Source: an uncultured Bacilli bacterium (GTDB lineage Bacteria > Bacillota_I > Bacilli_A > RF39 > UBA660). From it: 64,000 bases of DNA. Shown piece after piece: positions 4,887-39,817 of the stretch. Position 1 is the stretch's first letter. Every line of letters begins with the position of its first letter. A program made the position numbers and the translations under genes. The notes beneath the pieces are model-generated. The model worked only from the letters and a program-made list of their open reading frames with translations, searched no databases and was not told where the DNA came from. The stretch covers positions 5,321 to 69,320 of the forward strand of contig CAKOPC010000003.1 in the NCBI GenBank assembly GCA_934098705.1. Reading direction: 5' to 3'.

Positions 4887-7097
4887 TTATCTATTATTGT
4901 TAGTAGCATTATGATTTGCCCTTGTTTTTTCCATTTTATCTTTAGCAGCGGCTTGTGCTGTCTCCATTTTACCTTTAACTGTTGATATATCGTCACTATA
5001 TCCTTCGACTCCAGCTGCCTTAAATAAACCATCAGCAGTATTTAGTATTTTTTGACCTTTTTCTGCCTTTTCAGCATCTATATGTCCTGCTTTAGTTAAG
5101 CTGGCAATTTCAACTGTATTTCCATCAAGCTTAAATTTACCATCATTTTGTAGTGCTGTTGCCACTTGTTGTACTGCACCTTTTTTAGCATCTGCTAATG
5201 CTTTGTTTACATTATCAATACCTTCTGCTCCATTAGCGTCTGTAACACGTAATATTTGTTGTTTTCCGTCTTTATCCACATAGCTAATATCACTTGAAAT
5301 TTGACCTCCATTATTTAGTATTGACTGAGCTTGCTCTAGTTTTCCAAGTCCAAATAAATCACCATTTTTTCTTGCTTCTCCAATAGCATAGTCTTCAAAA
5401 CTGCTACCAGCTTTTAATGCATCATCTGCTGCTTTATATTGTTCCTCGGCTTTATCATAAGCATCTTGATGTCCAAATGTATGTGCAAATCCCGAAGCAA
5501 ATTGTCCCCAGAAACTACCCCCTTGGGCATTTCTTTGTCTTGCTGAAACAGCTCGGTTTCTTTGTCCGCTAACAGCACCGGCTATATTGCTAAATCCTCT
5601 AGCTCCAGCATTTCCGCCTCTTACCATTCCGCCCAAAAGACCTCCTACTGCTGTTCCAAAGTTTCCACCTTTTCCCATACCAGCAATAAAACCAATGCCA
5701 CCTGTTGCTAAGGCTCCAGTTCCAACAAGAGCGGCTGTTTTTAAAGCGTTCATTGATTCTTTAAATGTTCCACCCATATTTTTAATACCTAAAATATCTG
5801 TTATTATATTAGGGATTGTTTTTGCAAATATAAATATTGCAATATATACAAGTAATGCAGAAAGTCCACTAACTTGTGTTGAAAATTTAGATATAAATAA
5901 AACAGCAAGTCTTATTGATAATATTTTTATAAATAAATCAAAATAGCATCCAACATACTTTTGAAACCAATTGTTTAATATTTTATCATTAGGGTTTATA
6001 TATGACATAAAAGCAATAGGTGCTAATATTTGAAGAAGTAATAGTTTAAACGTACGGATAATTACTTCTATACATAAAATTAAAATAACAACAATTAAAC
6101 CAATACCAACTATTATACATATAAATAAGTCAAAATCTATTTCTTTTTGTTCTACTAATTTACCAAAATCTTCGTTACCTTGTGGATTATTTATAAAACT
6201 TGTTTCTAGCAGTTTATCTGGTTGTGATGTAAAGGTTGCCATAATTTCTCTAGCAAATTTAGAACCTTCAGTGTTGCTTGCATTACTTGTACCTAATTCA
6301 ATTTGGTTATATGTATAACCACCTTTTAATAATTCATCTGTTCTAGAGCACTTTTCTATATCATCTGTGAAATTTATGGTAAATTTTAATTGACTTCCAT
6401 TTTTATTAGAATACCAAACACCTTTTAATGCACAATAATTATTTGGTATTGCATCACAAGATGTTACTTTACCGTTCATTTGACAAATAATTTTTTTTGT
6501 ACCAGAACCATTTTTATACGCAGAAGAATTTTTTATATCATCTATTATTCCACTATAGTACATACATCCTTGAATAAGCTCTGCCATACCACCTTTTTTA
6601 TTGTTAGCATTTTCACCACTCATACCGTTACTTGCTATCATACCTCTTGCTTTATTTATTTGTTCCCTACATTCAGCTTGACTATAAGTTTCAGCATTTA
6701 CATCAACTAATCTACTTAGAATACTATCTTCTGCTAACAATGCATTTTGTAACTGATCTAGTTTAGGAACAATTAGACTTTTAAAAGTCATTATAAGAAT
6801 AAGCGATATAACAACTCTTGTTATCATTTTACCTACTCCTGTTTGTTTATCTGCTACCCTATCTGGATCAATTAAATATTCAAACATTGTAACAGTTATT
6901 CTAAATAGCATAAACACTGCAACTAAAACATAAATAGTATCAGTAATTGATGTTATTGTATCGTTAATTACTGATACATCAAAGGCCTTCCCATTTGTAA
7001 AACTTAACATAAGGTTATACGCTTTTGCAACAGTTGTATAAACACCACAACATAATTCAATAAAGATTTCACCAAAATTATAAAATTTTAATATCAT
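4887..7097 (-). CDS. VirB6/TrbL-like polytopic T4SS membrane protein, paralog 1 (Cys-rich loop, Gly-rich segment, long hydrophilic C-terminal tail)
   Basis: 736 aa. N-terminal block shared with the other two paralogs (YVLVAVFMLFRITVTMFEYLIDPDRV), FMSYINPNDKILNNWFQKYVGCYFDLFIK, and GIKNMGGTFKESMNALKT. Several TM helices around a large Cys-containing loop. Confidence 0.6.
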   Translation of the reverse strand: MILKFYNFGEIFIELCCGVYTTVAKAYNLMLSFTNGKAFDVSVINDTITSITDTIYVLVAVFMLFRITVTMFEYLIDPDRVADKQTGVGKMITRVVISLILIMTFKSLIVPKLDQLQNALLAEDSILSRLVDVNAETYSQAECREQINKARGMIASNGMSGENANNKKGGMAELIQGCMYYSGIIDDIKNSSAYKNGSGTKKIICQMNGKVTSCDAIPNNYCALKGVWYSNKNGSQLKFTINFTDDIEKCSRTDELLKGGYTYNQIELGTSNASNTEGSKFAREIMATFTSQPDKLLETSFINNPQGNEDFGKLVEQKEIDFDLFICIIVGIGLIVVILILCIEVIIRTFKLLLLQILAPIAFMSYINPNDKILNNWFQKYVGCYFDLFIKILSIRLAVLFISKFSTQVSGLSALLVYIAIFIFAKTIPNIITDILGIKNMGGTFKESMNALKTAALVGTGALATGGIGFIAGMGKGGNFGTAVGGLLGGMVRGGNAGARGFSNIAGAVSGQRNRAVSARQRNAQGGSFWGQFASGFAHTFGHQDAYDKAEEQYKAADDALKAGSSFEDYAIGEARKNGDLFGLGKLEQAQSILNNGGQISSDISYVDKDGKQQILRVTDANGAEGIDNVNKALADAKKGAVQQVATALQNDGKFKLDGNTVEIASLTKAGHIDAEKAEKGQKILNTADGLFKAAGVEGYSDDISTVKGKMETAQAAAKDKMEKTRANHNATNNNR

Positions 7098-7121
7098 TTT
7101 ACTATTCCCCTTTTTTATTTT

Positions 7122-7484
7122 TTATTTGCATGTTGCAATACCTGTTAAATTTATTATTGCTTTAATTAAAATTGGTATAAATAATATAGCAACACCAATT
7201 ACTAATCTTTTTATAGCAGTACTTTGTGCTTTTTTCATATCATCAGCTTTACCTGCTGCAACAGCTGTTACCATATCTTTAACAATTAATATTAAAGTAA
7301 TACATGGAATTGATATCATTGCTCCAGTATATACATACTTTAATATTTCAACAACTCCAGCACCTAAAATGCTACTACAATCATCAATAATTTCTTCTCC
7401 ACCATTATCTGCAAAACAAGTAAGTGGTGTGAAAAGCAAACTAAGTAATACATATTTTATTTTCTTTATCTTCATAACTTTCAC
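7122..7484 (-). CDS. VirB2/TrbC-like T4SS pilin candidate 1
   Basis: 120 aa. Signal peptide (cleavage about CFA/DNGG), two hydrophobic helices separated by a Lys/Ala-rich loop (KDMVTAVAAGKADDMKKAQSTAIKR). Three Cys in the mature part. Confidence 0.5.
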   Translation of the reverse strand: MKVMKIKKIKYVLLSLLFTPLTCFADNGGEEIIDDCSSILGAGVVEILKYVYTGAMISIPCITLILIVKDMVTAVAAGKADDMKKAQSTAIKRLVIGVAILFIPILIKAIINLTGIATCK

Positions 7485-7586
7485 CTATCAATCCAAATTT
7501 ATTATAGCAAAAAAAAAAATAAATAACAATAAATATTACTTATTTTTTTATTTTAAATGTTTAAAAATGATATTTGACCGTTTTAA

Positions 7587-9974
7587 TTATTTTTTATTAA
7601 CATCCTGACTTGCTTTTTTTGCTTTGTAAGATTTGCTATCTTCAATAGTAGATGCTTTGTCATTTTCCTTAACGGCATAGCTATTGTGATATTCTTTACC
7701 TTTTTTAACACTCTCCCAGCTATATACATCTATAGCTTTATTGCCATTGTCTTCCCCATCTTTATCGTTTGTTGTTAATTCTTTATACATAGACATTTTA
7801 TTTGCTCCTGATTCTTTCATAGTTTGAAGATCTTTATCATTAGTAGCAGTATTGTAATATTCTTCAATAGCTAGATCTGCTAAACCTTTGTTAGTATTAT
7901 CATAATTGCCATGTAATACATCATATTGTTTGCTATATTCCTCTTTAGCTTTTGCTAGAGAACTCTTATATTGTTCATCAACTATTTGATTATACATACT
8001 ATCAGTAATTCCTTCATGACTTATTCCTGCTGCAACACTTTCTCTTGTTATACTATTTTTAACAGCTTCAAGCCTTGTAAGTTCTTCCTTAGCTTTTCTG
8101 TAATCTTTCATATATTTAGAGTTTGTATACTTATCTCCCTTACCTTTATTTAACTCTCCTTCAACATAAGATTTGGCATTATTTGCATAATCAACGGCAA
8201 GTTGATGACTTTTTGCTTTTTCTTTATACTCTTTAATTTTTCTATCCTCATCACTTGTTAAATTAACTCCTAAATGCGATAATTGTCTATCGAGCCAATT
8301 TGAACCATTTAAACGTGCCTCTCTTACATTAACATTTCTTTGTGCCTGATTTATTCCTCCTTCTAAAATGTGTCCTCTGCTTCCACTTGCAAATCCTCTT
8401 CCAAGACCTCCAAATAAACCACCAACGACTGTAGAAAAACTATGACCTTTTCCGGCGCCACTTGCAGCTCCTATAGCTCCTCCAATTAATGCTCCAGTTC
8501 CTGCAAATGCAGTTGTCTTTAAAGCATTCATTGATTCTTTAAATGTTCCACCCATATTTTTAAGTCCAAATATATCACTTATAAAGTTTGGAACTATTTT
8601 AGCAAATATAAATATTCCTATATAGAATAATATTTTAGCAGCTCCTCCATAAGCAAAATCAGTGTTAGCAACTTCATCAATTAATAATACACTTACTTGT
8701 AAAGCTAATAATTTTATAAACAAGTCTAAAAAGCATCCGACATACTTTTGAAACCAATTACTTAAAACTTTATCATTGGGATTTATATATGATACAAAAG
8801 CAATAGGTGCTAACATATTTAGTACAACCATTTTAAACTGACGTATTACAACTTCAATCATTAAAATTAGTATAAAAACAATTATAGCAATACCACAAAT
8901 CACGCAAAGAAAAATGTCAAATTGAAAACTATTTTCTTCATTTTCAACAATTCTTGCAACTGCATCATTAGCATCACTTGACTCTAAAAATTTACATCCA
9001 CCATCACAGTCATTAGAATATGTTGCTTCTGTTATGACTTTAGAATCACTTGCAAATGAACCAACTATACTTCTTGCAAAAGCTGCTCCACCTTCACTAT
9101 TAACCATTTCATCATAAACTATATCTTCTGCTGTTTGATCTATTATAAACATAATATTGTATTCATTATTACCTTTTGAATTTTTTGTTGTAATGTATGT
9201 GCTATCTATGGTTCCTCTTAAAGAAACTCCATTTTTTAATGAACTAGCTGCTTCTTTTATTAAATCATAAAAATTATAATTTATAAATATTTCTCCAATA
9301 CTAGGTAACTCTCCATTATATTTTAAACCATAATAGCTTTTAAGTGCTGCTTTAACAGGACCTTCAACTGAAGTACTATAAAGTTTACAATTATATTCAG
9401 TACCATTTATTTCATTTAATGCTTTACATAGTCCTTTAGATTTAAAATTTTTTGCTGGGCATTCGCGATAAGCTGATATAATATCTTCATTAGTTTTTAT
9501 AAGTCCTTTATTATACATGTTTTCAATATCACACTTGCTACTTCCAGATTCTTCTAAATCACTTCTTTGATCACCACTTCCAACATCAAATATTCTAAAT
9601 AATGGACTATCATTTTCAAGTAAAACTTGTTGTAAATGGTTTACACCTTTTAATATTATTGGAAATGCTATAACAAGTAAAAGAGAAATGATTATTCTTG
9701 ATATAAGTTTTCCAGCACCTTGTTGTTTATCACTAACTTTATCTGGATCTATTAAATACCCAATTAATATCATAGTTATTCTAAATAACATAAATACTGC
9801 AACTAATACATAAATGTTATTTTCAACTGCTTGTATCTTTTCAAAAAATTTTTCTTCTGCAAAATCATTAATAAAATGAATCATCATATCATAGTTTTTA
9901 GCAACACTTGTAAACACCCCCGCTATAAATTTCATAAAAACATATGCAACATTAAAAAATCCAGTCTTCAACAT
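7587..9974 (-). CDS. VirB6/TrbL-like T4SS membrane protein, paralog 2 (different Cys-rich loop and tail)
   Basis: 795 aa. Same conserved blocks as paralog 1 (YVLVAVFMLFRITMILIGYLIDPDKV; FVSYINPNDKVLSNWFQKYVGCFLDLFIK; GLKNMGGTFKESMNALKT). Unrelated ~200-aa loop with 9 Cys. Confidence 0.6.
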   Translation of the reverse strand: MLKTGFFNVAYVFMKFIAGVFTSVAKNYDMMIHFINDFAEEKFFEKIQAVENNIYVLVAVFMLFRITMILIGYLIDPDKVSDKQQGAGKLISRIIISLLLVIAFPIILKGVNHLQQVLLENDSPLFRIFDVGSGDQRSDLEESGSSKCDIENMYNKGLIKTNEDIISAYRECPAKNFKSKGLCKALNEINGTEYNCKLYSTSVEGPVKAALKSYYGLKYNGELPSIGEIFINYNFYDLIKEAASSLKNGVSLRGTIDSTYITTKNSKGNNEYNIMFIIDQTAEDIVYDEMVNSEGGAAFARSIVGSFASDSKVITEATYSNDCDGGCKFLESSDANDAVARIVENEENSFQFDIFLCVICGIAIIVFILILMIEVVIRQFKMVVLNMLAPIAFVSYINPNDKVLSNWFQKYVGCFLDLFIKLLALQVSVLLIDEVANTDFAYGGAAKILFYIGIFIFAKIVPNFISDIFGLKNMGGTFKESMNALKTTAFAGTGALIGGAIGAASGAGKGHSFSTVVGGLFGGLGRGFASGSRGHILEGGINQAQRNVNVREARLNGSNWLDRQLSHLGVNLTSDEDRKIKEYKEKAKSHQLAVDYANNAKSYVEGELNKGKGDKYTNSKYMKDYRKAKEELTRLEAVKNSITRESVAAGISHEGITDSMYNQIVDEQYKSSLAKAKEEYSKQYDVLHGNYDNTNKGLADLAIEEYYNTATNDKDLQTMKESGANKMSMYKELTTNDKDGEDNGNKAIDVYSWESVKKGKEYHNSYAVKENDKASTIEDSKSYKAKKASQDVNKK

Positions 9975-10189
9975 TATATTTCACCTCTATTTTTTAATTA
10001 AAATAGTAATTAAATAGCGGATTGTTATTGAATTATTAATGTTTTTATTTCAAATAATTGTTAAACTTTCAAAAAAAATTTACACTGTATTATTTTGTAA
10101 TAAAATTAATATAATTAAGCCTTTAAAAACATATTTTATACTTCCACTACACTACCTATCCTATTAGTTTAATTATAACCAATATTTAA

Positions 10190-10230
10190 CTTTATTGCAA
10201 TAAAAAATGTAAACAGTTTTTATGTGTCTA
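10190..10230 (-). terminator. Intrinsic terminator after VirB6-like paralog 3
   Basis: Inverted repeat AAATGTAAACA-gtttttatg-TGTCTACATTT lies immediately 3' of the paralog 3 stop (10266). The minus-strand RNA has a U-run after the hairpin. Confidence 0.4.
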
Positions 10231-10265
10231 CATTTATCTTAAAACTTCGCAATATGTCTAGTTTT

Positions 10266-12041
10266 TTATTTAGATTTCTTACTATCTCTTTTACTTTCTG
10301 TTGGTGTTTTTGTTTTTGGATCATATCCTGATTTGTTATGTTCTTTAGCAATTTTAAGAGCAATAGCTGCATCTTGGATTGCTTCTTGTTTTGCTTTGTC
10401 TGTTTTATCTTTAGCCTGTACTGTTGATACTCTTGATGGTGTAACTCCAACAAACTTCTCACTGGCATCTAATCTTGATGCTAAAGTTACAATATTTTTT
10501 TGGAAGGCATTAGCATTACCATTTAAGAACGCTTCTTTTGCTTCTATTAACTGACTTGCTCTTGCAAGACCTTTCTTTTCTCCCCAAGCTTCATCTAACA
10601 TTCTTAATTTTTCACTTGTATCTTCTGTTTCATTAAACTTTTGTAGTTTTTCACCTGTCACACCGAAGGCATTAGCATAAGCAAATTTTTCTTCAAGTGT
10701 ACCAGAATCATATATGTTTTGTAATTGTTGCATTGATTTATCACTACTAAATACTGACCCATCAAGAGCACCATCAAGGGCTTTGTAATTATCCCCAGCA
10801 CTTTTAGCAGCATCTTTATGCTGAGTTGCACTTTTAATCCAAGGAAATTTGTTTTGTATTTCATCTTTTTGAGCTTCACGCCAACCTATTCCTTCGGCTT
10901 TTCTTTTGGCAACAGCAGTATTACTGCTACTAAATGCTTTACCAACATTACCAATTTTTCCTGAAAAACCAGAATTTAAAACTGCAAATGTTTGTCCTAT
11001 GGTACCTTTGTTGGCTGCTGTTACAAATGCTCCAGCTGTACCAACTGCAGTAACAAGGGATGTTTTTACAGCATTCATTGAATCTTTAAATGTTCCACCC
11101 ATATTTTTAATACCAAAGATTTCACTTATAAAGTTTGGAACTGTCTTAGCAAATACAAATGCTCCAAAATATAATAATAATTTATTAAATCCTGTAACAG
11201 AATCATTTAAAAGTCCAATAAAATATATTGCCATATTTATTCCCAATATTTTAACAAATAAATCTAAATAACAACCAATAAATTTACTAGTCCAATTATT
11301 TAAAACTTTATCATTGGGATTTATATATGATATAAAGGCTACCGGAGATAATACTCTTAAAATTAATAGTTTAAAGTTTCGTATAACAACTTCAATACAT
11401 AAAGCAGCTAATAATACACAAAGAGCAATTCCACATAAAATACTCATAAAAATATCTATTGATATTTCTTCTTCTTCTACTTTTTTTGATATATCATCAT
11501 TACCTTCTTTAGTTATTAAAAAATCACTTTCTAATACTTCATCTGGATTTTTTGATAATGATGCTACCATCTCTCTTGCAAAAGCTATTCCTGCTGTATA
11601 TTCTTTGCTACTATCTACATTAGTTTTATTATTTTGCGGATTAAACAAAGTATATAATACACTTTTACCATCACTTGGATTTAAAATAGCTTCTTCTAGT
11701 GGTGATATTACTGTATCCATAACAACTGGAAATCCTATAACTAATATTAATGATATTACAATTCTTGTTAACATTTTTCCAGTACCTGTTTGTTTATCAT
11801 TTAACTTATCTGGATCTATTAGGTATCCAAACATTGTAACAGTTATTCTAAATAGCATAAAAATTGCTATTAATGTATAAACATTTTCTATAATATTTCC
11901 TATTTCTTCATTTAGTATTTGTGAACCAGTAAGCATCTTAGTATAAGATACCATTCCATCGTATACCATAGCAACTGTTGAAAATATCCATGATAAAAAT
12001 TTTGTAAATATTTCTCCTGCATTAAATAATTTTAATATCAT
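10266..12041 (-). CDS. VirB6/TrbL-like T4SS membrane protein, paralog 3 (short loop without Cys)
   Basis: 591 aa. Same conserved N-terminal, FISYINPNDKVLNNW and GIKNMGGTFKDSMNAVKT blocks. Loop reduced to ~90 aa. Confidence 0.6.
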   Translation of the reverse strand: MILKLFNAGEIFTKFLSWIFSTVAMVYDGMVSYTKMLTGSQILNEEIGNIIENVYTLIAIFMLFRITVTMFGYLIDPDKLNDKQTGTGKMLTRIVISLILVIGFPVVMDTVISPLEEAILNPSDGKSVLYTLFNPQNNKTNVDSSKEYTAGIAFAREMVASLSKNPDEVLESDFLITKEGNDDISKKVEEEEISIDIFMSILCGIALCVLLAALCIEVVIRNFKLLILRVLSPVAFISYINPNDKVLNNWTSKFIGCYLDLFVKILGINMAIYFIGLLNDSVTGFNKLLLYFGAFVFAKTVPNFISEIFGIKNMGGTFKDSMNAVKTSLVTAVGTAGAFVTAANKGTIGQTFAVLNSGFSGKIGNVGKAFSSSNTAVAKRKAEGIGWREAQKDEIQNKFPWIKSATQHKDAAKSAGDNYKALDGALDGSVFSSDKSMQQLQNIYDSGTLEEKFAYANAFGVTGEKLQKFNETEDTSEKLRMLDEAWGEKKGLARASQLIEAKEAFLNGNANAFQKNIVTLASRLDASEKFVGVTPSRVSTVQAKDKTDKAKQEAIQDAAIALKIAKEHNKSGYDPKTKTPTESKRDSKKSK

Positions 12042-12107: not shown

Positions 12108-13145
12108 TTAATTTTTTTGAATAGGATTTTCTTTAACTTTTAGACTATCTTCATAATATTGTTTTATTAATCTTCTTACATTTTCTTCATTAAAAGCATA
12201 CTTTAACATCTTATTTATTTGATTTTCGGTGCAGAAAAAATTAACGCACTTGTTTTCTAAGTCTTCATTATCTTGATATTTATTAAGATATGATTCCACC
12301 AAAAAATAAGCTACGCTATTTAATTTATCTTCTACTTTTCTATCAATTAATGGATTATATTTAATGTAAAGTAATTTGTCAGTATCCACAATGAAATTCA
12401 AAACAGATGTAACATCATTATATCTTGTTAATAAAGCAATCAAATGATATAAATCAGCTTTAAAGTATAGATACTCCATGTTTTTTTCTCCCACTATTCC
12501 TTCCAAATATTTAGCAATTTGGGCTTGATATTCATAAGATTTAGTTGTATCGTTAAAATATTTTTTATTTAAAACCTGTGTATATCCTTCATTTATGGCG
12601 CGACCATACGTCTTAGTCTTTGACACGAATATACTTTGAGAAAAGCCACAATATGCCACTTTTCCTGTAAATAGTGTACTTGCAGCATGCAATAATTCAT
12701 GTGTTATTACTTCATTTTTATAATTATAAATACTTATCTTATTTTTTACAGTACTATATGCTCCATCAATATATATAAAGTGTAATATACTTTTTATAAA
12801 GTATGAAATATCAGTTGTTTTAGTTAATGTTGTCAAGTTATTAAATAACAATTCATATGAAAATTCGGGATTTTTTTCTTTTAAAGTTTTTATAAAATTT
12901 ATTATTACATCTTTCATTTCCTGATTAAATGTATTTGATATTTCAAAGTCTTGTTTTTCATATTTAAAATCAGGTCTTATAATTATTTCTTTTAATTCTT
13001 CGTTTTTACATAGTTTTATTCTTTTTTTACCCTCTATAAAACCACCATATACAACAAATGTTGATATAAACGTTACAATTTCTTTTACTTTTTCAATATC
13101 AATATTATTAATAATATTTTCTATATCAAAAATATTTAAGTTCAT
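12108..13145 (-). CDS. HExxH-motif protein (putative zinc metallopeptidase) encoded within the T4SS operon
   Basis: ITHELLHAAS motif. Likely start is the internal ATG at 13145, preceded by AAAGGAGGTAAAATT, rather than the ORF-track start at 13208. Confidence 0.45.
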   Translation of the reverse strand: MNLNIFDIENIINNIDIEKVKEIVTFISTFVVYGGFIEGKKRIKLCKNEELKEIIIRPDFKYEKQDFEISNTFNQEMKDVIINFIKTLKEKNPEFSYELLFNNLTTLTKTTDISYFIKSILHFIYIDGAYSTVKNKISIYNYKNEVITHELLHAASTLFTGKVAYCGFSQSIFVSKTKTYGRAINEGYTQVLNKKYFNDTTKSYEYQAQIAKYLEGIVGEKNMEYLYFKADLYHLIALLTRYNDVTSVLNFIVDTDKLLYIKYNPLIDRKVEDKLNSVAYFLVESYLNKYQDNEDLENKCVNFFCTENQINKMLKYAFNEENVRRLIKQYYEDSLKVKENPIQKN

Positions 13146-13215
13146 AATTTTACCTCCTTTTTTATTATAACAAAAAAACCAAATAACAACTAGTGCTATT
13201 TGGTTCATGTATTAA

Positions 13216-14215: not shown

Positions 14216-14509
14216 TTAAACTTCTTCATCTTTTTCATTTTTACTTAAAAAATATACAACTACTGTTCCTAATAAAACAATTATAGATATTTTAACAACT
14301 GTTGCTACATTTAATGGTTCATCTTTAGTTTGTTCTTTTATTTCCTCTTTTGGCACTTCAGTAGTAACCTCAATTTCTTCTTTTGTTTCAGTATCATTTA
14401 CTTCTTCGTCATTATATTCATCTGCCTTTACATTAAAGTTAAAACTAAAACTAATTAGCAAAATAAATATTATAGCAATAATTTTTTTAAAGTATCCTTT
14501 ATTTTTCAT
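14216..14509 (-). CDS. Small exported protein with acidic Glu/Lys-rich middle and C-terminal TM anchor
   Basis: 97 aa. Signal peptide, then a C-terminal hydrophobic helix. Confidence 0.4.
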   Translation of the reverse strand: MKNKGYFKKIIAIIFILLISFSFNFNVKADEYNDEEVNDTETKEEIEVTTEVPKEEIKEQTKDEPLNVATVVKISIIVLLGTVVVYFLSKNEKDEEV

Positions 14510-14539
14510 ATTTTCCTCCTACTATTCTTTTTATATATT

Positions 14540-14890
14540 TTATATTTTCTTGATACCCTTATCTTTATAATTTAAATACTCATTTAAGGCATTATTATAT
14601 CTTTCTATATCTTCTTCTTTATATAATTTTAAGGCATCTATAACATATTTTTGATTTACTTCTTCTAAAGATTTAACATTAGTATCATTAAGTTTTATTC
14701 CTGTTATACAATCATATAAATTGTTATCTATAAGTTCTGCTATTACAAAAACGTTTTCATATGTTTTTATGTCCTGATATGAAAAGTCATTTAAGCATGT
14801 AAATCTCACTCTTCCTATTATAGCTTCAAGTATATTAAGGAGCATGCCATTTGTATCATTATCAAGATATATTTTATAATATTTTTTCAT
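14540..14890 (-). CDS. Hypothetical protein
   Basis: ORF overlaps the upstream phosphorylase gene by a few codons. Start probably at MKKYYK (14890). Confidence 0.35.
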   Translation of the reverse strand: MKKYYKIYLDNDTNGMLLNILEAIIGRVRFTCLNDFSYQDIKTYENVFVIAELIDNNLYDCITGIKLNDTNVKSLEEVNQKYVIDALKLYKEEDIERYNNALNEYLNYKDKGIKKI

Positions 14891-16149
14891 TATAAGCATC
14901 CTATTATTACACTTTTTGATTTTTGTTTTATTTTAGATATTTTAAAGTATTTACTAACATCAATATTTATATTTTTAGTATTGCCATATAAAGTACATAA
15001 AACATCCCCTTTTAAAACTTTTGCTGTTACATGTTTTTCAATTATTATACCTGCATCATAGTTTATTAAATCTTCTTTAGTTTTTCTTCCAGCTCCTAGT
15101 AAAACTGATGTTTTTCCTAAATTTAAGGCATCTATATCTTTTATATAACCAGTATGTGTTGCATAAACTTTTAAACCATCTGGTAATTTTAAAATATTTA
15201 TATTACCATTATTATAAGTAACATAAGATACAAATCTTTTATAGGCATTACCATTTTCTATTTGTTCTACAACTTTTATTTTTGCTGTTTCAAAAGGAAT
15301 ATTTAAAGTTATTTCTACTATTTTACTTGCTAAATAAACACATAATTCATAAAGGTTACCTCTTACTTTATTTTGTAAAAATTCTAAAACTTCCATAATT
15401 TCTATTTTGTTACCAATATTATATCCTAATGGTTTATTCATATCTGTTAGGACACATATTACATTTCTGTTATATTTTATACCTATCTCTTTCATAATAG
15501 TTGCCAGTTTTAAAGCATCTTTTTTATTTTTTATTAGTGCTCCTTTGCCTACCTTTAAATCAATTACTATATTTTTTGATGAGCATGCTATTTTTTTACT
15601 CATAATAGATGTTGCAATAAGTCCTATGTCTTCAGTTGTATTGGTTACATCTCTTAGGGCATATACTTTTTTATCTAAAGGACAAAGATTTTTTGTTTGT
15701 TTTGTTATGGCAAAACCGAATTTAGAAACATTTTCATATAAAGTATCATAATCTAAATCTGTATTTACATTTATACTTTCTAATTTATCTATTGTTCCTC
15801 CGGTATAACCAAGTCCTTTACCACTCATTTTAACAAGGTTTACACCTAAACAGGCAACTATAGGGGCAATAATTAAAGTTGTTTTATCTCCAATACCACC
15901 AGTTGAATGTTTATCACATAAGTTTTTTATGGTGCTTAAATCAAGTACTTCACCTGACTTTATAAATATATCACAAAGATCAAATATTTCATTTTTATTT
16001 AACTTATATTTTACAATAGCTTTTAACATCTTAGTCATGTCATCATCATTTATAGTGCCATTTAAATAACCATTAAAAAAGTATGCTAACTCATCATATG
16101 ATAAAGTGTTTTTAAGTTTTACTTTATTTATTATTTCTTCGTTATTCAT
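14890..16149 (-). CDS. pdp: Pyrimidine-nucleoside (thymidine) phosphorylase
   Basis: HSTGGIGDKTTLIIAPIVA and SGKGLGYTGGTIDKLESI motifs typical of the thymidine/pyrimidine-nucleoside phosphorylase family; ~420 aa. Confidence 0.8.
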   Translation of the reverse strand: MNNEEIINKVKLKNTLSYDELAYFFNGYLNGTINDDDMTKMLKAIVKYKLNKNEIFDLCDIFIKSGEVLDLSTIKNLCDKHSTGGIGDKTTLIIAPIVACLGVNLVKMSGKGLGYTGGTIDKLESINVNTDLDYDTLYENVSKFGFAITKQTKNLCPLDKKVYALRDVTNTTEDIGLIATSIMSKKIACSSKNIVIDLKVGKGALIKNKKDALKLATIMKEIGIKYNRNVICVLTDMNKPLGYNIGNKIEIMEVLEFLQNKVRGNLYELCVYLASKIVEITLNIPFETAKIKVVEQIENGNAYKRFVSYVTYNNGNINILKLPDGLKVYATHTGYIKDIDALNLGKTSVLLGAGRKTKEDLINYDAGIIIEKHVTAKVLKGDVLCTLYGNTKNINIDVSKYFKISKIKQKSKSVIIGCL

Positions 16150-19865: not shown

Positions 19866-20882
19866 TTATAATTTATTATTACTTTTTATTTCATTAACTA
19901 AATCTTTAATTGTATATTCAATATTTCTTGTTTGGTAATCTAAATCCTTTTTTGCTTTAGCATTTGTAAAGTTAGCATTGGCTTTTAATGTATACAATGA
20001 ATATTTAGTAAATAATGGTGTTTTTTTTCTAAATCTATAATATAGTTCAAATAAAGGAACAATATTTTTAACCATGTTTATTGAAACAACTTTTGTTATT
20101 GGTCTTATAGCACCATACTCACATACCAAATCAGCTATTTTTTTTATGGTTACATATTCACCTGATAAAATATATCCTTCCCCTTTTTTACCTTTAGTAC
20201 AAGCATTAATAATACCTTCAGCGACATCTCTTACATCGACAAAGTCATATCCACCTTCAGTTACCAAAGGAAGTTTTTCATTTAAGATATTTTTTATTAA
20301 AACGGTCATATTTGTATTGGTAAAATCATTTACCCCTAGAAGTCCTGATGGAAATACAACACAAGCATTTAAATTATTGTTTTTAACTTCATTAAACACA
20401 TACTTTGTCGTTTCAGCTTTAGTCTTTGCATATAAACCAATAATTTTATCTGGATCAAAACTTGCATTTTCATCCATTACCTCATGATTTGGTTTTTCTT
20501 CTATTGCATGTACACTGCTAACATAGACTAGTTTAGCTTTTATTTCTTTGGTTTTTTGAATGATGTTTTTAGTCCCTTGTACATTAACTTGATATACTCT
20601 TTCATTATATTTACTATCAAGGTATACTATTGAAGCACAATGAATAACATAAATATTTGCTTTTTCTTTAACTTTTTCATCAATATTAAATATATCTTTT
20701 AATGTTTCTATCTTTGTTACATCACCATAGAATTTTTTGCATTTAAGCCCTTTTAGAGCATCTGTTTTATCATTGGGTATAATTAATGCTCTTATTTCGT
20801 TATTATTATCTTTTTCAAGTAATCTTACAATATTGTTTCCAAGAAAGCCATTAGCTCCTGTTATTATATAAATATTTTTCAT
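19866..20882 (-). CDS. NAD-dependent epimerase/dehydratase (extended SDR) family protein
   Basis: Rossmann motif IITGANGFLGNNIV near the N-terminus. Start likely MKNIYI. Confidence 0.7.
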   Translation of the reverse strand: MKNIYIITGANGFLGNNIVRLLEKDNNNEIRALIIPNDKTDALKGLKCKKFYGDVTKIETLKDIFNIDEKVKEKANIYVIHCASIVYLDSKYNERVYQVNVQGTKNIIQKTKEIKAKLVYVSSVHAIEEKPNHEVMDENASFDPDKIIGLYAKTKAETTKYVFNEVKNNNLNACVVFPSGLLGVNDFTNTNMTVLIKNILNEKLPLVTEGGYDFVDVRDVAEGIINACTKGKKGEGYILSGEYVTIKKIADLVCEYGAIRPITKVVSINMVKNIVPLFELYYRFRKKTPLFTKYSLYTLKANANFTNAKAKKDLDYQTRNIEYTIKDLVNEIKSNNKL

Positions 20883-20893
20883 ATAGTTCACCA

Positions 20894-21490
20894 TTATTTC
20901 CTTATAAAGTTTTCTTTTCCTTGTTTACATTTAGGACACACAAAGGTTTCTGGAAGATTTTCTCCATCATATATATATCCACACAATGTGCATACCCAAA
21001 AAGTTTTATTATCTTTAGTTGTTATTTTAATTAATTCTTCTTTATGTTCTTGATAATAATGATATGTCATAACTTCATCATCACTAGTTATATCGCCTTC
21101 AAACATTTGACCAAAGAATACAGTATGAGTTTCATTTTCAACAAAGCCCTCCACATCACATATTAAATAACCTAAAGTATTACTAATAATGTTTATTCCA
21201 TCAACTTCTCTATATTCTATTTCCTTAAATTTATCAATTTCTCTACTTGATTTAAATCCAAATGTTTCTATAATTTTTGGATTAACTTTTTTCCCAATAA
21301 TTGACAAAGCAAATTTTTGATTTAACTTAATTAATTGATTAGTAAAATTCTTTTTATTTACTGACACTATGATAGTAGGTTTTTCTCCTTTTCCTACTTG
21401 AGCAACAGCATCAACTATACAGCCCCCGCCTTTAGTTGTTAAAACATACATTCCATGTGTTATTTTTGATGTTACATCTACATTTCTCAT
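20894..21490 (-). CDS. Flavin reductase-like (FMN-binding) domain fused to a C-terminal rubredoxin-like domain
   Basis: Flavin reductase-like N-terminal domain. C-terminal two CxxC pairs (WVCTLCGYIY...FVCPKCKQ), typical rubredoxin fold. Confidence 0.65.
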   Translation of the reverse strand: MRNVDVTSKITHGMYVLTTKGGGCIVDAVAQVGKGEKPTIIVSVNKKNFTNQLIKLNQKFALSIIGKKVNPKIIETFGFKSSREIDKFKEIEYREVDGINIISNTLGYLICDVEGFVENETHTVFFGQMFEGDITSDDEVMTYHYYQEHKEELIKITTKDNKTFWVCTLCGYIYDGENLPETFVCPKCKQGKENFIRK

Positions 21491-21909
21491 TAGTTACTCC
21501 TATCCTTAAAGAATCTTTCTATTTCTATTATTGCTTCTTCCTTGCTACCAGATCCGTGAATCACATTAATGCTTTTATCAGTGCCATATTTTCCCCTTAT
21601 TGTTTCAGGCCCTGCAATCCTACTATCAGTTGGCCCTATCAACTTTCTAAATCTTTCAACTATGTTATCTCCTTCTAAAAGTAAAATTGCTACTTTATCA
21701 GAAGTCATATAGTCAACAAGTTCTGGAAAAAATGGTTTATCTACCAAATGAGCATAATGTTCTTTTAAGATTTCTTTATCCAAATATTTCAGATAAAAAT
21801 CTTTAATAGTAAATCCTTCATTGTAAATGGCCGCTATAATTTCATCTAAATACACCATTCCATCTGGCTTTACAATAGCAAGCGTCCTTTCTTTATTCTT
21901 TGTTTTCAT
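21490..21909 (-). CDS. ndk: Nucleoside diphosphate kinase
   Basis: ERTLAIVKPDG and NVIHGSGS motifs; 139 aa; GGAAGGAGG RBS. Confidence 0.8.
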   Translation of the reverse strand: MKTKNKERTLAIVKPDGMVYLDEIIAAIYNEGFTIKDFYLKYLDKEILKEHYAHLVDKPFFPELVDYMTSDKVAILLLEGDNIVERFRKLIGPTDSRIAGPETIRGKYGTDKSINVIHGSGSKEEAIIEIERFFKDRSN

Positions 21910-31248: not shown

Positions 31249-33414
31249 TTATGATTTACTCTTATTATTAACTATCTTTTTATCAAATAAGACAATAATA
31301 CTTGGCAAGACAAATAATATTAATAATACTGCAATAGTTACTCCGATTGCTATTATATGGCAGATCTCTCCTATCGCAGGATCTTTAAAGACAAACCCTA
31401 ATACACCAGTTATAATAATCATTATTAGTGATGATGTAAGAATTGTATGAATTGATTTATTATATGTTTCTTTTAAAGATATTCTTATACTGTTTTCTTT
31501 CCTTAGCTCTCTATAATAGTTTGTAAATAATATTGCATAATCAATCGTAGCACCCATTAAGATACTTTGTACTATAAGTAAAGATAGATAATATACTTTC
31601 ATATCTAATATATTAATAATACTCATTAATATATAGACAGCACACTGAATTAGTAATACTAATATAAATGGAATAATTAGCGATTTAAAGGTAAATAAAA
31701 CTACCAAAAATATTAAAACTATTGTAATAATTGTAAGTTTATTCATTTCATAATTAAAGTTATTACTCATTTCATAGTTCATTATAGAATTTCCTATAAA
31801 GTAATATTTTTCATTTAATTTATTCATACATTCTTTGTCTAATTTATCAATAAAAGTAAATGTATCTTTTGATTCTTCTTTATATGATGTGCTTATATTA
31901 ATAATAGAATGGTTTTCTCCAACAAACATTTTTTTAGCTTCTTGTATCATATTATTAGCACTATTTATTTCTAGAAGCATATCATCATTAATCATATTTT
32001 TAAAGTTATTTTGATTTTGTATTATAAAATTAATAAGTTCTTCAAGTGTTAATTTAGAATCATTATTGTATTTATCTTGATAGATAGTTTTATAAATACT
32101 AACGATAATTTCTTTATTAATATCAATATTTTGCATTTTTAAAAAATAATCTAATTCATCGGCATTATATTTTTTCCCTACTGTCGTTTTATAAGTATTT
32201 ATAGTTTTAACCTTATCATCAATAGTTAGATAATTTATAATTTCATCAATATTATCTTCATTTTTATTTTCATATAAAAGTACTATATTATTATCTCTTT
32301 TAAAAACCTTACTGATAGTATTATCTTTCGGTGTATCAAAAGTAACTATATTTGTTCCTTTAATAAAATATAAACCGGCAAATAGTATTATAAAAGTTAA
32401 TGATATTATATATTTATATTTTTGACTAAATATGGCGATTTTTTCCATATTTATATGAGGATATTTCTTATGTGTTTTATATATTAGTTTATCAAATATA
32501 AGTATAAGTGATGGTAATACTGTAAAGATACATATTAAACTAATTAATACTCCTTTAGATAAAACTATTCCTAAATCTGTTCCTATTTTAAAACTCATAA
32601 ATAAAAGTGCTAAAAGTCCTACTATAGTAGTAAATGAACTACCCATAATAGATGGAAATGATTTTTTTATTGCCTCTTTCATTGAAGTTAAATTATTTTT
32701 ATTATTTTCTTTTTCTTCACGGTAGCGATTAAGTAACATTATTGAATAATCCATTGTTAGAACAAGTTGCAAGATAGCTGCGATGGAATAAGTGGTATAT
32801 GACACTTCACCAAGTAAATAATTGGTTCCTAAATTAATGATAATTGCAATTCCTATTGTTATTATAAATAATACCGGTTCTATCCATGATGAACACATAA
32901 TAAGTAATATTATTAGTAGTATTGAAAAAGCAAATATAATAATTGAAATAGGAACATTAGTAGTATCACTATCTAGTTCATATACGAGTTTATATTCTTC
33001 TTTTAGATTATCAAGTTCTTTTTTAATATTTTTTATTTCATCAGAATTAGAATTATATTTACTAGTTAACACATATAACGTGTGATTATCCTTATTATAT
33101 GCATTACTTTCATTATCATAACTGATTGTATAAATGTTTTTTACTTCTTTTAATTTATTATAAACATCTAACTTTTTATTATTATCTAAGTCATCTATCA
33201 TTACCCAAACAGTACTCATATTTTTAACATCTGGTAATTCTTTTTCTAAAATATCAATGCCTTTTTTCATTGAAGAATTAGATGGTAAATATTTAGTCAT
33301 ATCTTGATTTATATTTACTTTATTCATAGCAAATATACTCACGCAAGTAACAAGTAACATAAATAATAAAATATAATTTCTTTTTTCTGTTATGAAATTT
33401 ATTATTTTTTTCAT
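31249..33414 (-). CDS. MMPL/RND-superfamily membrane transporter
   Basis: 721 aa. Two blocks of ~6 TM helices, each preceded by a large extracytoplasmic domain. Divergent from the TetR gene. Confidence 0.6.
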   Translation of the reverse strand: MKKIINFITEKRNYILLFMLLVTCVSIFAMNKVNINQDMTKYLPSNSSMKKGIDILEKELPDVKNMSTVWVMIDDLDNNKKLDVYNKLKEVKNIYTISYDNESNAYNKDNHTLYVLTSKYNSNSDEIKNIKKELDNLKEEYKLVYELDSDTTNVPISIIIFAFSILLIILLIMCSSWIEPVLFIITIGIAIIINLGTNYLLGEVSYTTYSIAAILQLVLTMDYSIMLLNRYREEKENNKNNLTSMKEAIKKSFPSIMGSSFTTIVGLLALLFMSFKIGTDLGIVLSKGVLISLICIFTVLPSLILIFDKLIYKTHKKYPHINMEKIAIFSQKYKYIISLTFIILFAGLYFIKGTNIVTFDTPKDNTISKVFKRDNNIVLLYENKNEDNIDEIINYLTIDDKVKTINTYKTTVGKKYNADELDYFLKMQNIDINKEIIVSIYKTIYQDKYNNDSKLTLEELINFIIQNQNNFKNMINDDMLLEINSANNMIQEAKKMFVGENHSIINISTSYKEESKDTFTFIDKLDKECMNKLNEKYYFIGNSIMNYEMSNNFNYEMNKLTIITIVLIFLVVLFTFKSLIIPFILVLLIQCAVYILMSIINILDMKVYYLSLLIVQSILMGATIDYAILFTNYYRELRKENSIRISLKETYNKSIHTILTSSLIMIIITGVLGFVFKDPAIGEICHIIAIGVTIAVLLILFVLPSIIVLFDKKIVNNKSKS

Positions 33415-33508
33415 TAATAATTTCTCCCTTCTTTGACTTATATGTCTATTTATATTATAATATACATATGTTGATTTTACAGCCAGCAGTTTATAAAAAT
33501 TTGTTATT

Positions 33509-33540
33509 AAATAAACATTAAAATAATATATGTTTATTTA
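33509..33540. promoter_or_regulatory. Perfect 10-bp inverted repeat AAATAAACAT-N11-ATGTTTATTT in the MMPL/TetR divergent intergenic region (candidate TetR operator)
   Basis: Seen directly in sequence; position is typical for TetR autoregulatory operators. Confidence 0.4.
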
Positions 33541-33564
33541 ATAAATGAAAGGAGTAAATTATTT

Positions 33565-34095
33565 ATGAATATCAAAGATAATCGTCGTGTTTCAATGACT
33601 AAAAAAATTATTAAAGATACATTTATTGAAATGTTAGAAAAGAAAAATATTCAAAAGATTTATGTTAGAGAATTATGTGAATCTGCTGATATTAATAGAA
33701 GTACATTCTATAAATATTATGAATCACAATATGATTTATTAGCAGAAATGCAAAATGATTTGCTCATTCAAATAGAAGAAAAATGTAAAGATACTGATAA
33801 TATAAAAGGATTAAATAATATATTACATTATCTAAATAATAATAAAAAAATGTATAAGATTATTTTTAATGCAAATATTGATCCAATATTTCCAAAAAAA
33901 TTGTTAAATTTGCCTATTATTACTGAAATATTAAATAGCAAAATGTCTAGTAAAACTGAAACTAAATATAAGAAAACTTATATTCTTGAGGGTGGATACC
34001 ATGTTATATTAGAATGGTTAAATAATGATTGCAAAGAACCGGCAGAAAAGATAACTGAAGTCCTTATGAAATATATAAATCAAAATTTGAAATAG
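33565..34095 (+). CDS. TetR/AcrR-family transcriptional regulator
   Basis: N-terminal HTH KIYVRELCESADINRSTFYKYYESQYDL; 176 aa. Confidence 0.75.
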   Translation: MNIKDNRRVSMTKKIIKDTFIEMLEKKNIQKIYVRELCESADINRSTFYKYYESQYDLLAEMQNDLLIQIEEKCKDTDNIKGLNNILHYLNNNKKMYKIIFNANIDPIFPKKLLNLPIITEILNSKMSSKTETKYKKTYILEGGYHVILEWLNNDCKEPAEKITEVLMKYINQNLK

Positions 34096-34100
34096 AAAAA

Positions 34101-34145
34101 AAGTTTATAGAAAGTAAATATATCTATAAACTTTTTATTTATACT
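34101..34145. terminator. Bidirectional intrinsic terminator
   Basis: AGTTTATAG-aaagtaaatatat-CTATAAACT hairpin flanked by A/T runs, between convergent genes. Confidence 0.4.
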
Positions 34146-35559: not shown

Positions 35560-35604
35560 ATATATCACCATTTATTTAAAATAAAAGAATATGATAGAAA
35601 AGTA

Positions 35605-36738: not shown

Positions 36739-36771
36739 AGTTAGACTCCTTTCTTTTTATTCTATATTTAT

Positions 36772-37890: not shown

Positions 37891-37927
37891 AAAATCCCTC
37901 TTCTTTATCTACTTTCTATCAACTATA

Positions 37928-38443
37928 TTACTTTGTTGCACTAGCATTAAATGTAACAGTAAAGTTTCCTGTAACTTCTTCTAAAGGTGCTTTTACTAAT
38001 TCAACTGTAACAGTTAGTTTCTTTGTTCCATTTGGAGCAATAGCAGCGTTATCTGCAAGTTCTGCTGTAACTGTATAATAATCTTTTGCAGTATCATCTG
38101 TTTGTGTTGCTGTTGGATTAGATAATGTTGCGTTAATACCAGCTTTACTGTTATTAGTTATTGTGTATTCTGCAACAACTTTTTCACCAACTGTTTTTAA
38201 TGTTTTTACAGATAGTGTTGCTATTTTTCCATTTCCTTTATCAGCTGTATCAGTTTTACCTGTTAAAGTTCCAGTTGTTGTTATGCTAGCATCAGTAAAA
38301 TTAACATCAAAGTTACTATCATCTGGACTAACTGTAATATCACCATTTACTTTTAAGTCAATAGTAGTAAGGGCATAACCAACACCTAAAACTAGTACTG
38401 CAACAACTAAAGCAAGAGCAACAAATGATTTTTTCTTTTTCAT
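37928..38443 (-). CDS. TasA/camelysin-like secreted fibre subunit candidate (SipW-cognate signal peptide)
   Basis: 171 aa. MKKKKSFVALALVVAVLVLGVGYALTTIDLKVNGDITV then Thr/Asn/Val-rich beta-type sequence. Immediately upstream of the SipW-like peptidase. Confidence 0.5.
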   Translation of the reverse strand: MKKKKSFVALALVVAVLVLGVGYALTTIDLKVNGDITVSPDDSNFDVNFTDASITTTGTLTGKTDTADKGNGKIATLSVKTLKTVGEKVVAEYTITNNSKAGINATLSNPTATQTDDTAKDYYTVTAELADNAAIAPNGTKKLTVTVELVKAPLEEVTGNFTVTFNASATK

Positions 38444-38648: not shown

Positions 38649-38723
38649 AAATATAAAAAAGAGTTATATGTGTATTATTTATTCATTAGTTAACAAAAAA
38701 AGAAATCTAATTAAATAGATTCC

Positions 38724-39806: not shown

Positions 39807-39817
39807 GTATAACCTCC

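Follow-up and report, generated by a model that had tools for sequence, protein, structure and literature searches.

Why should a single conjugative element carry three tandem genes for a VirB6-type protein? This question is raised by a stretch of 64,000 nucleotides from an uncultured gut bacterium of the Bacilli (contig CAKOPC010000003.1 of assembly GCA_934098705.1), analysed here as a whole and called the window. On its minus strand lie three tandem VirB6-like genes, labelled P1, P2 and P3, at exactly the coordinates, strand and lengths given by the initial annotation (Table 1). Their products are VirB6-type subunits, all intact but diverged from one another, of a single conjugative type IV secretion system (T4SS) of the monoderm kind, located on a chromosomally integrated integrative and conjugative element (ICE). 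In otherwise near-identical elements, the slot of P1 is a hot spot of allelic replacement, where the entire open reading frame (ORF) is exchanged. The preferred reading joins the VirB6 identity of the three proteins to a platform assembled from several subunit types and to a P1 slot acting as a specificity cassette; as a whole, this statement is held with a confidence slightly above even.

VirB6 Identity and Predicted Fold

P1, P2 and P3 can be aligned from end to end, with 36-39% identity and 113 invariant columns, and the identity between paralogs is 55-63% in the cores. The conserved blocks described at first, Y[VT]L[VI]A[VI]FMLFRIT...YLIDPD, F[MVI]SYINPNDK..GC and G[IL]KNMGGTFK[ED]SMNA[LV]KT, are present in all three proteins, although P3 strays slightly from them (YTLIAIF; NWTSKF). 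Regarding their family, the Pfam profile TrbL_4 (PF19597) is matched by P1 (46.0 bits), P2 (43.7 bits) and P3 (41.4 bits) above its gathering cutoff of 27, and it is precomputed on nearly all homologs. The expected VirB6/TrbL signature is thus present, and its absence, which had been named as the result that would speak against a VirB6 assignment, was not observed; however, the profile suggested for the search, PF04610, gives no match at E<=1 for any of the three. The best named relatives in NCBIfam are transmembrane (TM) families of Mycoplasma ICEs, MMCAP2_0566 (NF045848) and Mbov_0396 (NF045889), together with pLS20_p028, all below cutoff; the scores for NF045889 and NF045848 are 40.6-54.5 bits against cutoffs of 70 and 90, and the window proteins are not members of these families. 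A profile search of PDB sequences returned just low-complexity tail matches (Mediator, SNF5), which were disregarded.

AlphaFold2 models of P1 and P2 were built from a 43-sequence family alignment, having a mean predicted local distance difference test score of 65.5 and 70.6, respectively, and of 70-85 in the helical cores. VirB6 is the best structural match for these two independent models, which share the fold of a solved VirB6, and TrwI is top-ranked by Foldseek, without significance. Hydrophobic segments on the Kyte-Doolittle scale are located in P1 at about 54-72, 90-110, 325-343, 384-402 and 414-432, with counterparts in P2 and P3. Each protein has a VirB6 helical core with six long helices, three towards each terminus, of which five are strongly hydrophobic, and in the models long helices stand on either side of an inserted domain. 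This domain sits where the classical VirB6 has its large extracytoplasmic loop, and the core is followed by a disordered Gly-rich linker (P1 445-544, P2 475-540) and then by a folded hydrophilic tail; the C-terminal domains are modelled confidently, their blocks averaging about 60-90 for P1 and 60-93 for P2.

A polytopic membrane family foreign to T4SSs, such as a phage-encoded one, would be consistent with the only PHROG matches, which are weak and fall to a function-unknown family (E 5e-5 to 0.017), and with the sub-cutoff NCBIfam scores. It is nevertheless scarcely credible, as the Pfam threshold is passed three times, two independent models match VirB6 best, the synteny with VirB4 and the coupling protein is conserved, and a phage collection holds no match. 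On sequence, fold and context, the membership of P1, P2 and P3 in the VirB6/TrbL superfamily is held with very high confidence.

Loops and Tails

The three proteins differ mostly outside the core. The central loops of P1 (209 aa) and P2 (241 aa) contain 6 Cys each, and that of P3 (83 aa) contains none, which confirms the Cys-free loop of the third paralog and lowers the 6-9 Cys once counted for the other two. These loops had been called completely different, and no BLASTP match is found between those of P1 and P2; however, the profile-profile comparison of P1-type and P2-type loop families relates them over 190 columns (probability 98.9%, E 2e-17). One loop Cys column is common to 33 of 43 relatives, and the P1 and P2 loops are diverged forms of one inserted domain. 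In the three-way alignment, P3 retains just the conserved final ~45 residues of the loop region, being similar here to the short Mycoplasma-type profile; indeed, nearly the full length of the VirB6-type profiles of Mycoplasma ICEs is covered by P3, with scores below cutoff. Downstream of the final conserved block a Gly-rich stretch intervenes (Gly 12-25% in the first 100 tail residues), and the hydrophilic tails, of 264-308 aa, are as distinct as first described, without any tail-to-tail BLASTP match among the paralogs.

Replacement at the P1 Slot

The variability of the array is concentrated in one gene. When contigs with the backbone of the window are compared gene by gene, those for the single-stranded DNA-binding protein (SSB), the helix-turn-helix (HTH) regulator, the pyrimidine-nucleoside phosphorylase (PyNP), orf106, orf213 and VirB4 are 98-100% identical, with a synonymous divergence (dS) of 0-0.17 over these genes and of about 0-0.09 for flanking genes, and in L014 and L016 both P2 and P3 are 99% identical to those of the window. 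The gene in the P1 slot is only 85% identical in L014 (nonsynonymous divergence, dN, 0.081; dS 0.294), 79% in L018 and 48% in L016, having a raised dS of 0.29-1.0. Alleles of the slot include types of 736, 739, 755 and 763 aa. In sliding windows, the divergence begins at the P1 start codon and stops at the P1 stop. The raised dS indicates that already-diverged alleles were imported, instead of an accelerated local change.

Smaller exchanges are also visible. The P1 of L014 is internally mosaic, with successive segments of 87-93%, 97-98%, 89-93% and 98-100% identity, then a tail of 63-87%. Among related proteins, P0017 has the N-core, loop and C-core of the P1 type (82-94%) fused to a P2-type tail (70%), P0008 combines a different loop (27%) with a P2-type tail (69%), and P0028-P0033 have P2-type cores (78-89%) with loops 47-69% identical and tails mostly without a match. 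Larger rearrangements are found in L017, which has the same backbone with the entire pilin-to-VirB6 segment replaced and one 893-aa gene, and in L018, with a P3-type gene, the P1/P2 chimera P0017 and a distant copy of 632 aa. This last VirB6-family gene (L018 3421-5328) is located upstream of the thioredoxin gene, has no precomputed Pfam match and belongs to a different clade of the family. The three-gene array itself is not an assembly artefact, since it recurs in contigs of at least seven samples obtained with different assemblers; the MERR22-1 series is among the samples with the element.

These exchanges bear on the idea of an obligate, subfunctionalised hetero-oligomer, a kind of assembly already suggested for the VirB6 paralogs of Rickettsiales, in which P3 would be, for example, the membrane-proximal channel and P1/P2 the surface-exposed subunits, no copy being an alternative to another. 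The conservation of the cores between paralogs would allow the same partners to be reached, P3 has lost the Cys-rich domain kept by P1 and P2, and the VirB6 paralogs of Rickettsiales are co-expressed, some of them being surface exposed (PMC7648143). However, the same backbone works with one copy (L017) or with other sets (L018), without a fixed stoichiometry, and a P1 slot that accepts 48%-identical alleles beside constant P2 and P3 is hard to square with co-adapted interfaces, though the cores stay similar. Such an oligomer is, consequently, regarded as unlikely.

Exchange between the resident copies was considered as well, due to the blocks of about 100 bp with 80-90% nucleotide identity that had been proposed to let the copies recombine. 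Those blocks are present: the paralog DNA has two matching blocks of 70-80% identity, the stretches 5730-5840, 8508-8618 and 11058-11168 reach 89% mean column identity, and the best 102-nt windows between paralogs are 84-88.5% identical, the longest exact runs being 33-37 nt. Where paralogs agree on a core residue, they also share its codon in 63-76% of cases, compared to 58-63% expected from codon usage alone, and there is thus no sign of recent conversion between the resident copies, which was rejected as an explanation. Synonymous sites are near saturation, and the high identity of the blocks is explained mostly by amino-acid constraint and AT-biased codon usage. The blocks could still act as crossover sites, but the exchange that is seen replaces the whole P1 ORF.

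Origin and Copy Number of the Array

In a neighbour-joining tree of 575 well-aligned columns with 100 bootstraps, P1, P2 and P3 fall within one clade (100%), interleaved with single-copy genes of other elements. P3 clusters with those of L020, L005 and L006 (100% bootstrap) and P2 with the single gene of L017 (100% bootstrap), and P1 is grouped with its own alleles (98-100% bootstrap). This interleaving indicates that the array is not a recent local triplication. Two origins can be considered, namely old duplicates that were differentially lost or genes of three ICE sub-lineages that were united, the second being more likely because of the replacement pattern of the P1 slot. From the single-copy loci L020 and L021, where two small pilin-like genes, types A and B, are adjacent and ahead of the sole VirB6 gene, the probable ancestral order is thioredoxin, type A, type B, VirB6, VirB3-like, split VirB4, CHAP/M23 hydrolase and type IV coupling protein (T4CP). 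Compared to that order, the window has the segment [orf366-P3-P2] between types A and B, and the hydrolase gene is absent. In a separate clade, two-copy arrays arose independently: L009 repeats a unit of pilin-like B and VirB6, and the two VirB6 copies of L010 are each other's closest relatives.

Copy number was scanned in metagenome contigs found by family patterns, having at least 3 kb of flank on each side, and the family ORFs per locus were counted with a hidden Markov model. One VirB6-family gene is present in 34 of these loci, two in 1 and three in 0; among loci from metagenome-assembled genomes (MAGs), L005 and L006 have one gene and L007, L009 and L010 have two. Meanwhile, an index of the sequence collection places the exact P1 sequence in 34 blocks, the three-copy form being the most often recovered form of this ICE. 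The view that the locus is unusual for a Firmicute conjugation system is, hence, correct for the copy number but not for the extended architecture. When 1.84 billion proteins, clustered at 50% identity, are searched with the family profile, 3,163 cluster representatives match at E<=1e-30, and most of the best 150 representatives listed have 700-1,000 aa and cover the profile end to end. In addition, "extended VirB6" proteins of 700-900 aa were already described in Gram-positive systems (2025 nomenclature review, PMC12857230). A long loop and a long tail are then ordinary for this family and for extended VirB6 in general, and only copy number and slot variability stand out. Tandem VirB6 paralogs are known from Rickettsiales (PMC7648143), and a full-text search of the literature gave no report of them in a monoderm conjugative system. 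To a T4SS specialist, an extended VirB6 would be no surprise; the useful part is a tandem array with one cassette-like slot while the rest of the backbone stays frozen, since it bears directly on the role of the extra VirB6 domains.

The same data could be read as a by-product of accretion, where the recombination of co-resident ICEs (e.g., tandem insertion followed by deletion) left one working copy, probably P1, and others as undecayed passengers. The nearest relatives of each paralog are single-copy genes of other elements, the copy number is 1, 2 or 3 among elements of the same backbone, [orf366-P3-P2] is inserted between pilin-like genes that are adjacent in single-copy loci, and a single copy is evidently enough in almost all relatives, as would be expected from such a history. 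Passengers, however, would not easily remain as three intact ORFs, with P2 and P3 99% conserved across independent samples and a dN/dS of ~0.18 for P3 compared to L018, nor would they explain that the three-copy form is the one most often recovered; moreover, the independent two-copy arrays of another clade suggest a recurrent benefit. Such accretion is, for those reasons, considered rather unlikely.

Predicted Topology, Putative Disulfide Bonds and Selection

The mean content of lysine and arginine per 10 residues in 43 members is 0.57 at the N-terminus, 1.19 in the TM1-TM2 loop, 1.17 in TM3-TM4, 0.43 in the TM4-TM5 loop and 1.29 after TM5, and the big loop is acidic, with a net charge of -12. 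This pattern points to an N-terminus and a big loop outside the cell and a tail in the cytoplasm. The same arrangement is the experimentally derived topology of Agrobacterium VirB6. Furthermore, all 43 sequences have an even number of Cys in the big loop (0, 2, 4, 6, 8 or 12), the tails, of 313 aa, average 0.23 Cys, a TM-anchored CxxC thioredoxin is found beside the module in the relatives examined, and both pilin-like proteins carry a terminal Cys. Taken together, these features suggest that the extracytoplasmic parts are disulfide-bonded, the loop being possibly helped by the adjacent membrane-anchored thioredoxin.

Segment-wise Nei-Gojobori estimates give a dN/dS of 0.07-0.21 for the cores, save 0.41 in one P3 segment with just five substitutions, 0.12-0.59 for the loops and 0.17-0.92 for the tails, where the upper values cannot be trusted, as the tails behind them hardly align. 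P1, P2 and P3 are thus all under purifying selection, with loops and tails less constrained than cores, and no whole gene or segment, loop and tail included, has a dN/dS >1.

Loop variation and multiplicity could also be driven by the evasion of an outside binder, such as a secretory antibody or a phage using the conjugation apparatus as receptor. The samples are gut metagenomes, judging from the contig names, the ectodomain is presumably disulfide-bonded, and variable tandem VirB2/VirB6 arrays of intracellular pathogens are usually taken as antigenic variation (PMC12102498; PMC7648143). Against it, close alleles differ most in the tail, which is nearly Cys-free and predicted to be cytoplasmic, no loop has a dN/dS >1, and the pilin-like proteins would be more exposed yet are conserved. 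Evasion is therefore considered very unlikely.

Proposed Function of the Array

In the preferred reading, VirB6 proteins would form a central pentameric platform on which the two pilin-like proteins assemble, by analogy with TrwI of R388 and PrgH of pCF10, these proteins docking via the conserved VirB6 core. The platform could be built from alternative or mixed VirB6 subunits, whose shared core would contact VirB3, VirB4 and the pilin, and whose ectodomain and tail would differ, acting as specificity determinants; the P1 slot would then be an exchangeable specificity cassette. As for the selective force, the one with the best precedent would be exclusion, because the exclusion proteins of several element families target the VirB6 homolog of the donor: extra or swapped VirB6 types may let a donor enter cells already holding a related ICE. 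An alternative force would be a broader recipient range. As described for ICEBs1, the exclusion protein YddJ targets ConG, a VirB6 homolog, with 20 residues setting the specificity, and in four other families of conjugative elements the identified exclusion targets likewise belong to the homologs or analogs of VirB6; even a cytoplasmic region can determine the specificity (bioRxiv 10.1101/2021.01.25.428195). The part of the reading that concerns specificity or exclusion is tentative and rated below an even chance. A stronger version, with the array as a multi-specificity device whose platform could be made from any of three subunit types, from three ICE sub-lineages, in order to escape the exclusion by a resident ICE or to mate with different envelopes, and with the P1 slot as a cassette at the population level, is doubtful.

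Several observations weigh against the specificity reading. No exclusion-gene candidate co-varying with the P1 allele is found within 10 kb of the array, and the variable small ORFs at 14216-14899 do not follow the P1 alleles. Since no segment has a dN/dS >1, the diversification looks like relaxed constraint combined with imported old alleles, and positive selection is not demonstrable. When close alleles are compared, the presumably cytoplasmic tail varies at least as much as the loop, which does not fit a simple recognition at the cell surface. The topology, in turn, is derived from a rough positive-inside count and Cys parity, and it may depart from the classical one, given that most VirB6 "TM" helices are not membrane-embedded in the R388 structure (PMC12857230); nonetheless, the R388-type picture also places the big loop outside, and the loop would be out in either case.

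The role of the extra domains in extended VirB6 proteins is not known, according to a 2025 consensus review (PMC12857230), and the locus is a natural experiment on them, as an ICE backbone 98-100% identical is kept and only the VirB6 complement is varied, through 1, 2 or 3 genes and through swaps of alleles and tails. It suggests that selection between elements, or between element and recipient, acts on the loop and tail of VirB6, and it supplies defined allele sets for tests of exclusion and host range. It also extends VirB6 paralog expansion, so far described for the effector systems of Rickettsiales, to a monoderm conjugative element and ties a large uncharacterised metagenomic VirB6 family (~3,100 clusters at 50% identity) to machinery of the Mycoplasma-ICE type. 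If the preferred reading is true, VirB6 ectodomains and tails would be the long-sought functional determinants of "extended" VirB6 in monoderm conjugation.

Comparison with Known Systems

In function, P1, P2 and P3 are most similar to VirB6, PrgH and ConG, and TrbL_4 is their best Pfam model. The likeness to the expanded VirB6 families of Rickettsiales (Anaplasma virB6-1 to -4, Ehrlichia, Rickettsia rvhB6), noticed from the beginning, is real in that those are also tandem VirB6 genes in a T4SS operon, with large extended hydrophilic regions and a variable 3' part of one copy (PMC7648143; PMC12857230). However, those systems are diderm effector-translocating T4SSs of the P-type from obligate intracellular bacteria, having VirB8-11 and varying by tandem repeats, whereas here a monoderm conjugative ICE varies by whole-ORF replacement, PF04610 is not matched, and no VirB8, VirB9, VirB10 or VirB11 family turned up among the ORFs of at least 80 aa scanned around the array. 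The resemblance is convergent, not orthologous.

For the pilin-like gene, all three VirB6 paralogs and VirB4, the best-scoring named families are those of the Mycoplasma ICE (CDS15/16/17; Mbov_0395, Mbov_0396/MMCAP2_0566, Mbov_0397), which has the same order of pilin-like, VirB6-like and VirB4 genes, and its CDS16 is regarded as a VirB6-like component and is needed for transfer (PMC12857230; PMC6030558). That ICE uses genetic code 4, carries a DDE transposase but no peptidoglycan hydrolase, and its one VirB6-like gene is short; in contrast, the element of the window uses code 11, its three VirB6 copies are extended, its VirB4 is split, it has a thioredoxin and a fragment of a tyrosine integrase, and its relatives have a CHAP/M23 hydrolase. 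A clostridial or pCP13-type plasmid context, proposed for comparison, was dropped, as the nearest named families are Mycoplasma ICE proteins, pCP13 has one pcpB6 (PMC8941779) and PLSDB (72,556 plasmids) gives no megablast and no tblastn match at E<=1e-5.

ConG of ICEBs1 and TraG of F and SXT/R391 are, like the proteins of the array, extended VirB6 homologs. Close elements differ there in a short stretch and in the C-terminal region, which set the exclusion specificity, and this is the best precedent for a hot spot of variation at one VirB6 slot. Nevertheless, ConG has no detectable sequence relation to the array and is single, and here no YddJ-like co-varying partner was found within 10 kb and the coupling protein is of the VirD4 type. 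For the ICEBs1 class, an FtsK/TcpA-type coupling protein would be expected. TrwI (R388) and PrgH (pCF10), single-copy proteins of ~300 aa with 7-10% identity, are without the inserted domain of ~200 aa and the tail of ~280 aa. Regarding the thioredoxin, F-type TrbB and PedC/BrcD are also CxxC thioredoxin-fold proteins in a transfer module, beside Cys-bearing extracytoplasmic components, but the similarity is below threshold, the protein of the array has an N-terminal TM anchor in a monoderm, and its substrates are inferred. Finally, in the T4SS of Patescibacteria, a surface or stalk component was also multiplied and diversified in a monoderm-type system, which is read as an adaptation to the partner cell (PMC12102498); however, this component is the pilin (VirB2), not VirB6, and the system is not clearly conjugative.

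The Surrounding Module, the Element and Its Host

The genes around the array are given in Table 1. On the minus strand, the order of transcription is SSB, HTH regulator, PyNP, two small ORFs, thioredoxin (opposite strand), type A, orf366, P3, P2, type B, P1, VirB3-like, split VirB4 and T4CP.

Table 1. Position and description of the features of the window
Feature	Position	Strand	Description
VirD4-type coupling protein, first 671 of ~700 aa	1..2013	-	Open frame from ATG 2013, cut by the window start
VirB4 ATPase part, 596 aa	2119..3909	-	Pfam AAA_10, P-loop_TraG, DUF87
Split VirB4 N-terminal domain, 213 aa	3906..4547	-	Mbov_0397 ICE VirB4 profile positions 97-276, E 1.8e-10
Candidate VirB3-like membrane protein, 106 aa	4528..4848	-	Position (VirB6-VirB4 gap), size and hydrophobic segment only
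P1, VirB6-like paralog, 736 aa	4887..7097	-	Slot directly upstream of virB3/virB4, called ancestral
Pilin-like small protein type B, 117-120 aa	7122..7484	-	Signal peptide, 2 TM helices, charged connecting loop, terminal Cys (sequence, hydropathy)
P2, VirB6-like paralog, 795 aa	7587..9974	-	
P3, VirB6-like paralog, 591 aa	10266..12041	-	Short Cys-free loop
orf366, 366 aa by longest ORF (345 aa as called in related contigs)	12108..13208	-	HELLH (HExxH) motif
Pilin-like small protein type A, 112 aa	13216..13554	-	2 TM helices, charged loop, 4 Cys
Thioredoxin-fold oxidoreductase, membrane-anchored, 159 aa	13678..14157	+	N-terminal TM helix, CKHC motif; Pfam Thioredoxin 38 bits
Metabolic genes	14890-16149, 19866-21909	-	Pyrimidine-nucleoside phosphorylase, NAD-dependent epimerase, flavin reductase-rubredoxin fusion, nucleoside diphosphate kinase
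Envelope genes	31249-41215	-	MMPL transporter, DUF5305 with S26 signal-peptidase-like protein, DHHW + MBOAT O-acyltransferase pair
N6/N4 DNA methylase and adjoining 889-aa ResIII/helicase protein	46578-50192	-	
Tyrosine-integrase fragment (261 aa), then IS3-family transposase, then chromosomal recG	54016-60410		

Types A and B are candidate VirB2-like pilins of a monoderm T4SS. Type A is below threshold for Pfam T4SS_pilin (20.6 bits vs 26.6) and also for the NCBIfam Mbov_0395 pilin-like family, and it is 62-88% identical to the first small gene of L020, L021, L012, L017, L009 and L018. Type B, whose true start is probably the ATG at 7475 (117 aa), is homologous to the second small gene before the single VirB6 in L020, L021 and L017, and its topology agrees with that of VirB2-like proteins of Gram-positive T4SSs (bioRxiv 10.64898/2025.12.18.695078). 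Types A and B are two related families in a family-wide comparison without composition adjustment, but composition-adjusted BLASTP gives no similarity, and the E-values of short TM proteins need caution. No remnant of a pilin gene was found in the 291-nt P3-P2 spacer. A promoter and terminator scan was uninformative in such AT-rich DNA (81 sites vs 68 expected), with no minus-strand terminator within the array.

The gene orf366, without a Pfam or NCBIfam match, accompanies P3 between the two pilin-like genes in window-type loci and L018, not in single-copy loci. Its HExxH motif is metalloprotease-like, and it is present only in the multi-copy ICE lineage, where the CHAP/M23 hydrolase gene that relatives have in the VirB4-T4CP gap is missing. 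The thioredoxin-fold protein is similar to the PedC/BrcD disulfide isomerase (41.9 bits) and F-type TrbB (22 bits) families of NCBIfam, both below cutoff, and its gene is kept at the same position in L012, L017, L018 and L021. In the gap between this gene and PyNP (14216-14899, minus strand), two short ORFs vary between near-identical elements, having 119/97 aa here and 114/99 aa in L001, with 76-88% DNA identity; one of them combines a signal peptide with an acidic stretch and is anchored by a TM segment at its C-terminus.

On the other side of the array, an ORF of 106-109 aa is found at the VirB3-like position in every related locus with genes read, and the one of the window has no family match in Pfam or NCBIfam. 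The 596-aa part of VirB4 covers positions 297-893 of the Mbov_0397 profile with 345.9 bits (cutoff 590) and matches the CD1110 family with 165 bits. The halves of VirB4 overlap by 4 nt, and the split is kept in all related loci (207-235 aa + 596-598 aa), indicating that it is no pseudogene. The coupling protein has the same N-terminus as the 700-aa gene of L001, which possesses T4SS-DNA_transf, TrwB_AAD_bind and TraG-D_C. In related contigs, the module goes on with Fic, Band_7 and a VWA-MucBP adhesin. This adhesin (L001 20118-22211; same spot in L015 and L016, past the window start) has 846, 917 and 988 aa between loci ~99% identical, being possibly another variable surface component of the same ICE.

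As for the element, the region with the integrase fragment, the IS3-family transposase and recG probably marks where the ICE meets the chromosome, the integrase having been truncated or interrupted there, and this set of genes indicates that the module is part of a chromosomally integrated ICE. The host belongs to an uncultured low-GC Bacilli lineage: the GC content is ~20-32%, and every relative in a species-representative genome comes from a MAG, with the label "uncultured Mycoplasma sp.", "Bacilli bacterium" or "bacterium". TGA ends 4 of 34 genes and is never found in frame, and its use as a stop indicates genetic code 11. The run of envelope genes suggests that the host modifies a cell-wall polymer, and a wall-less mycoplasma is unlikely. 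The methylase and the ResIII protein most likely form a Type III restriction-modification pair that the ICE carries as cargo. The metabolic genes are also inside the element, beside the SSB and HTH genes, and the position of the phosphorylase is kept in related ICEs.

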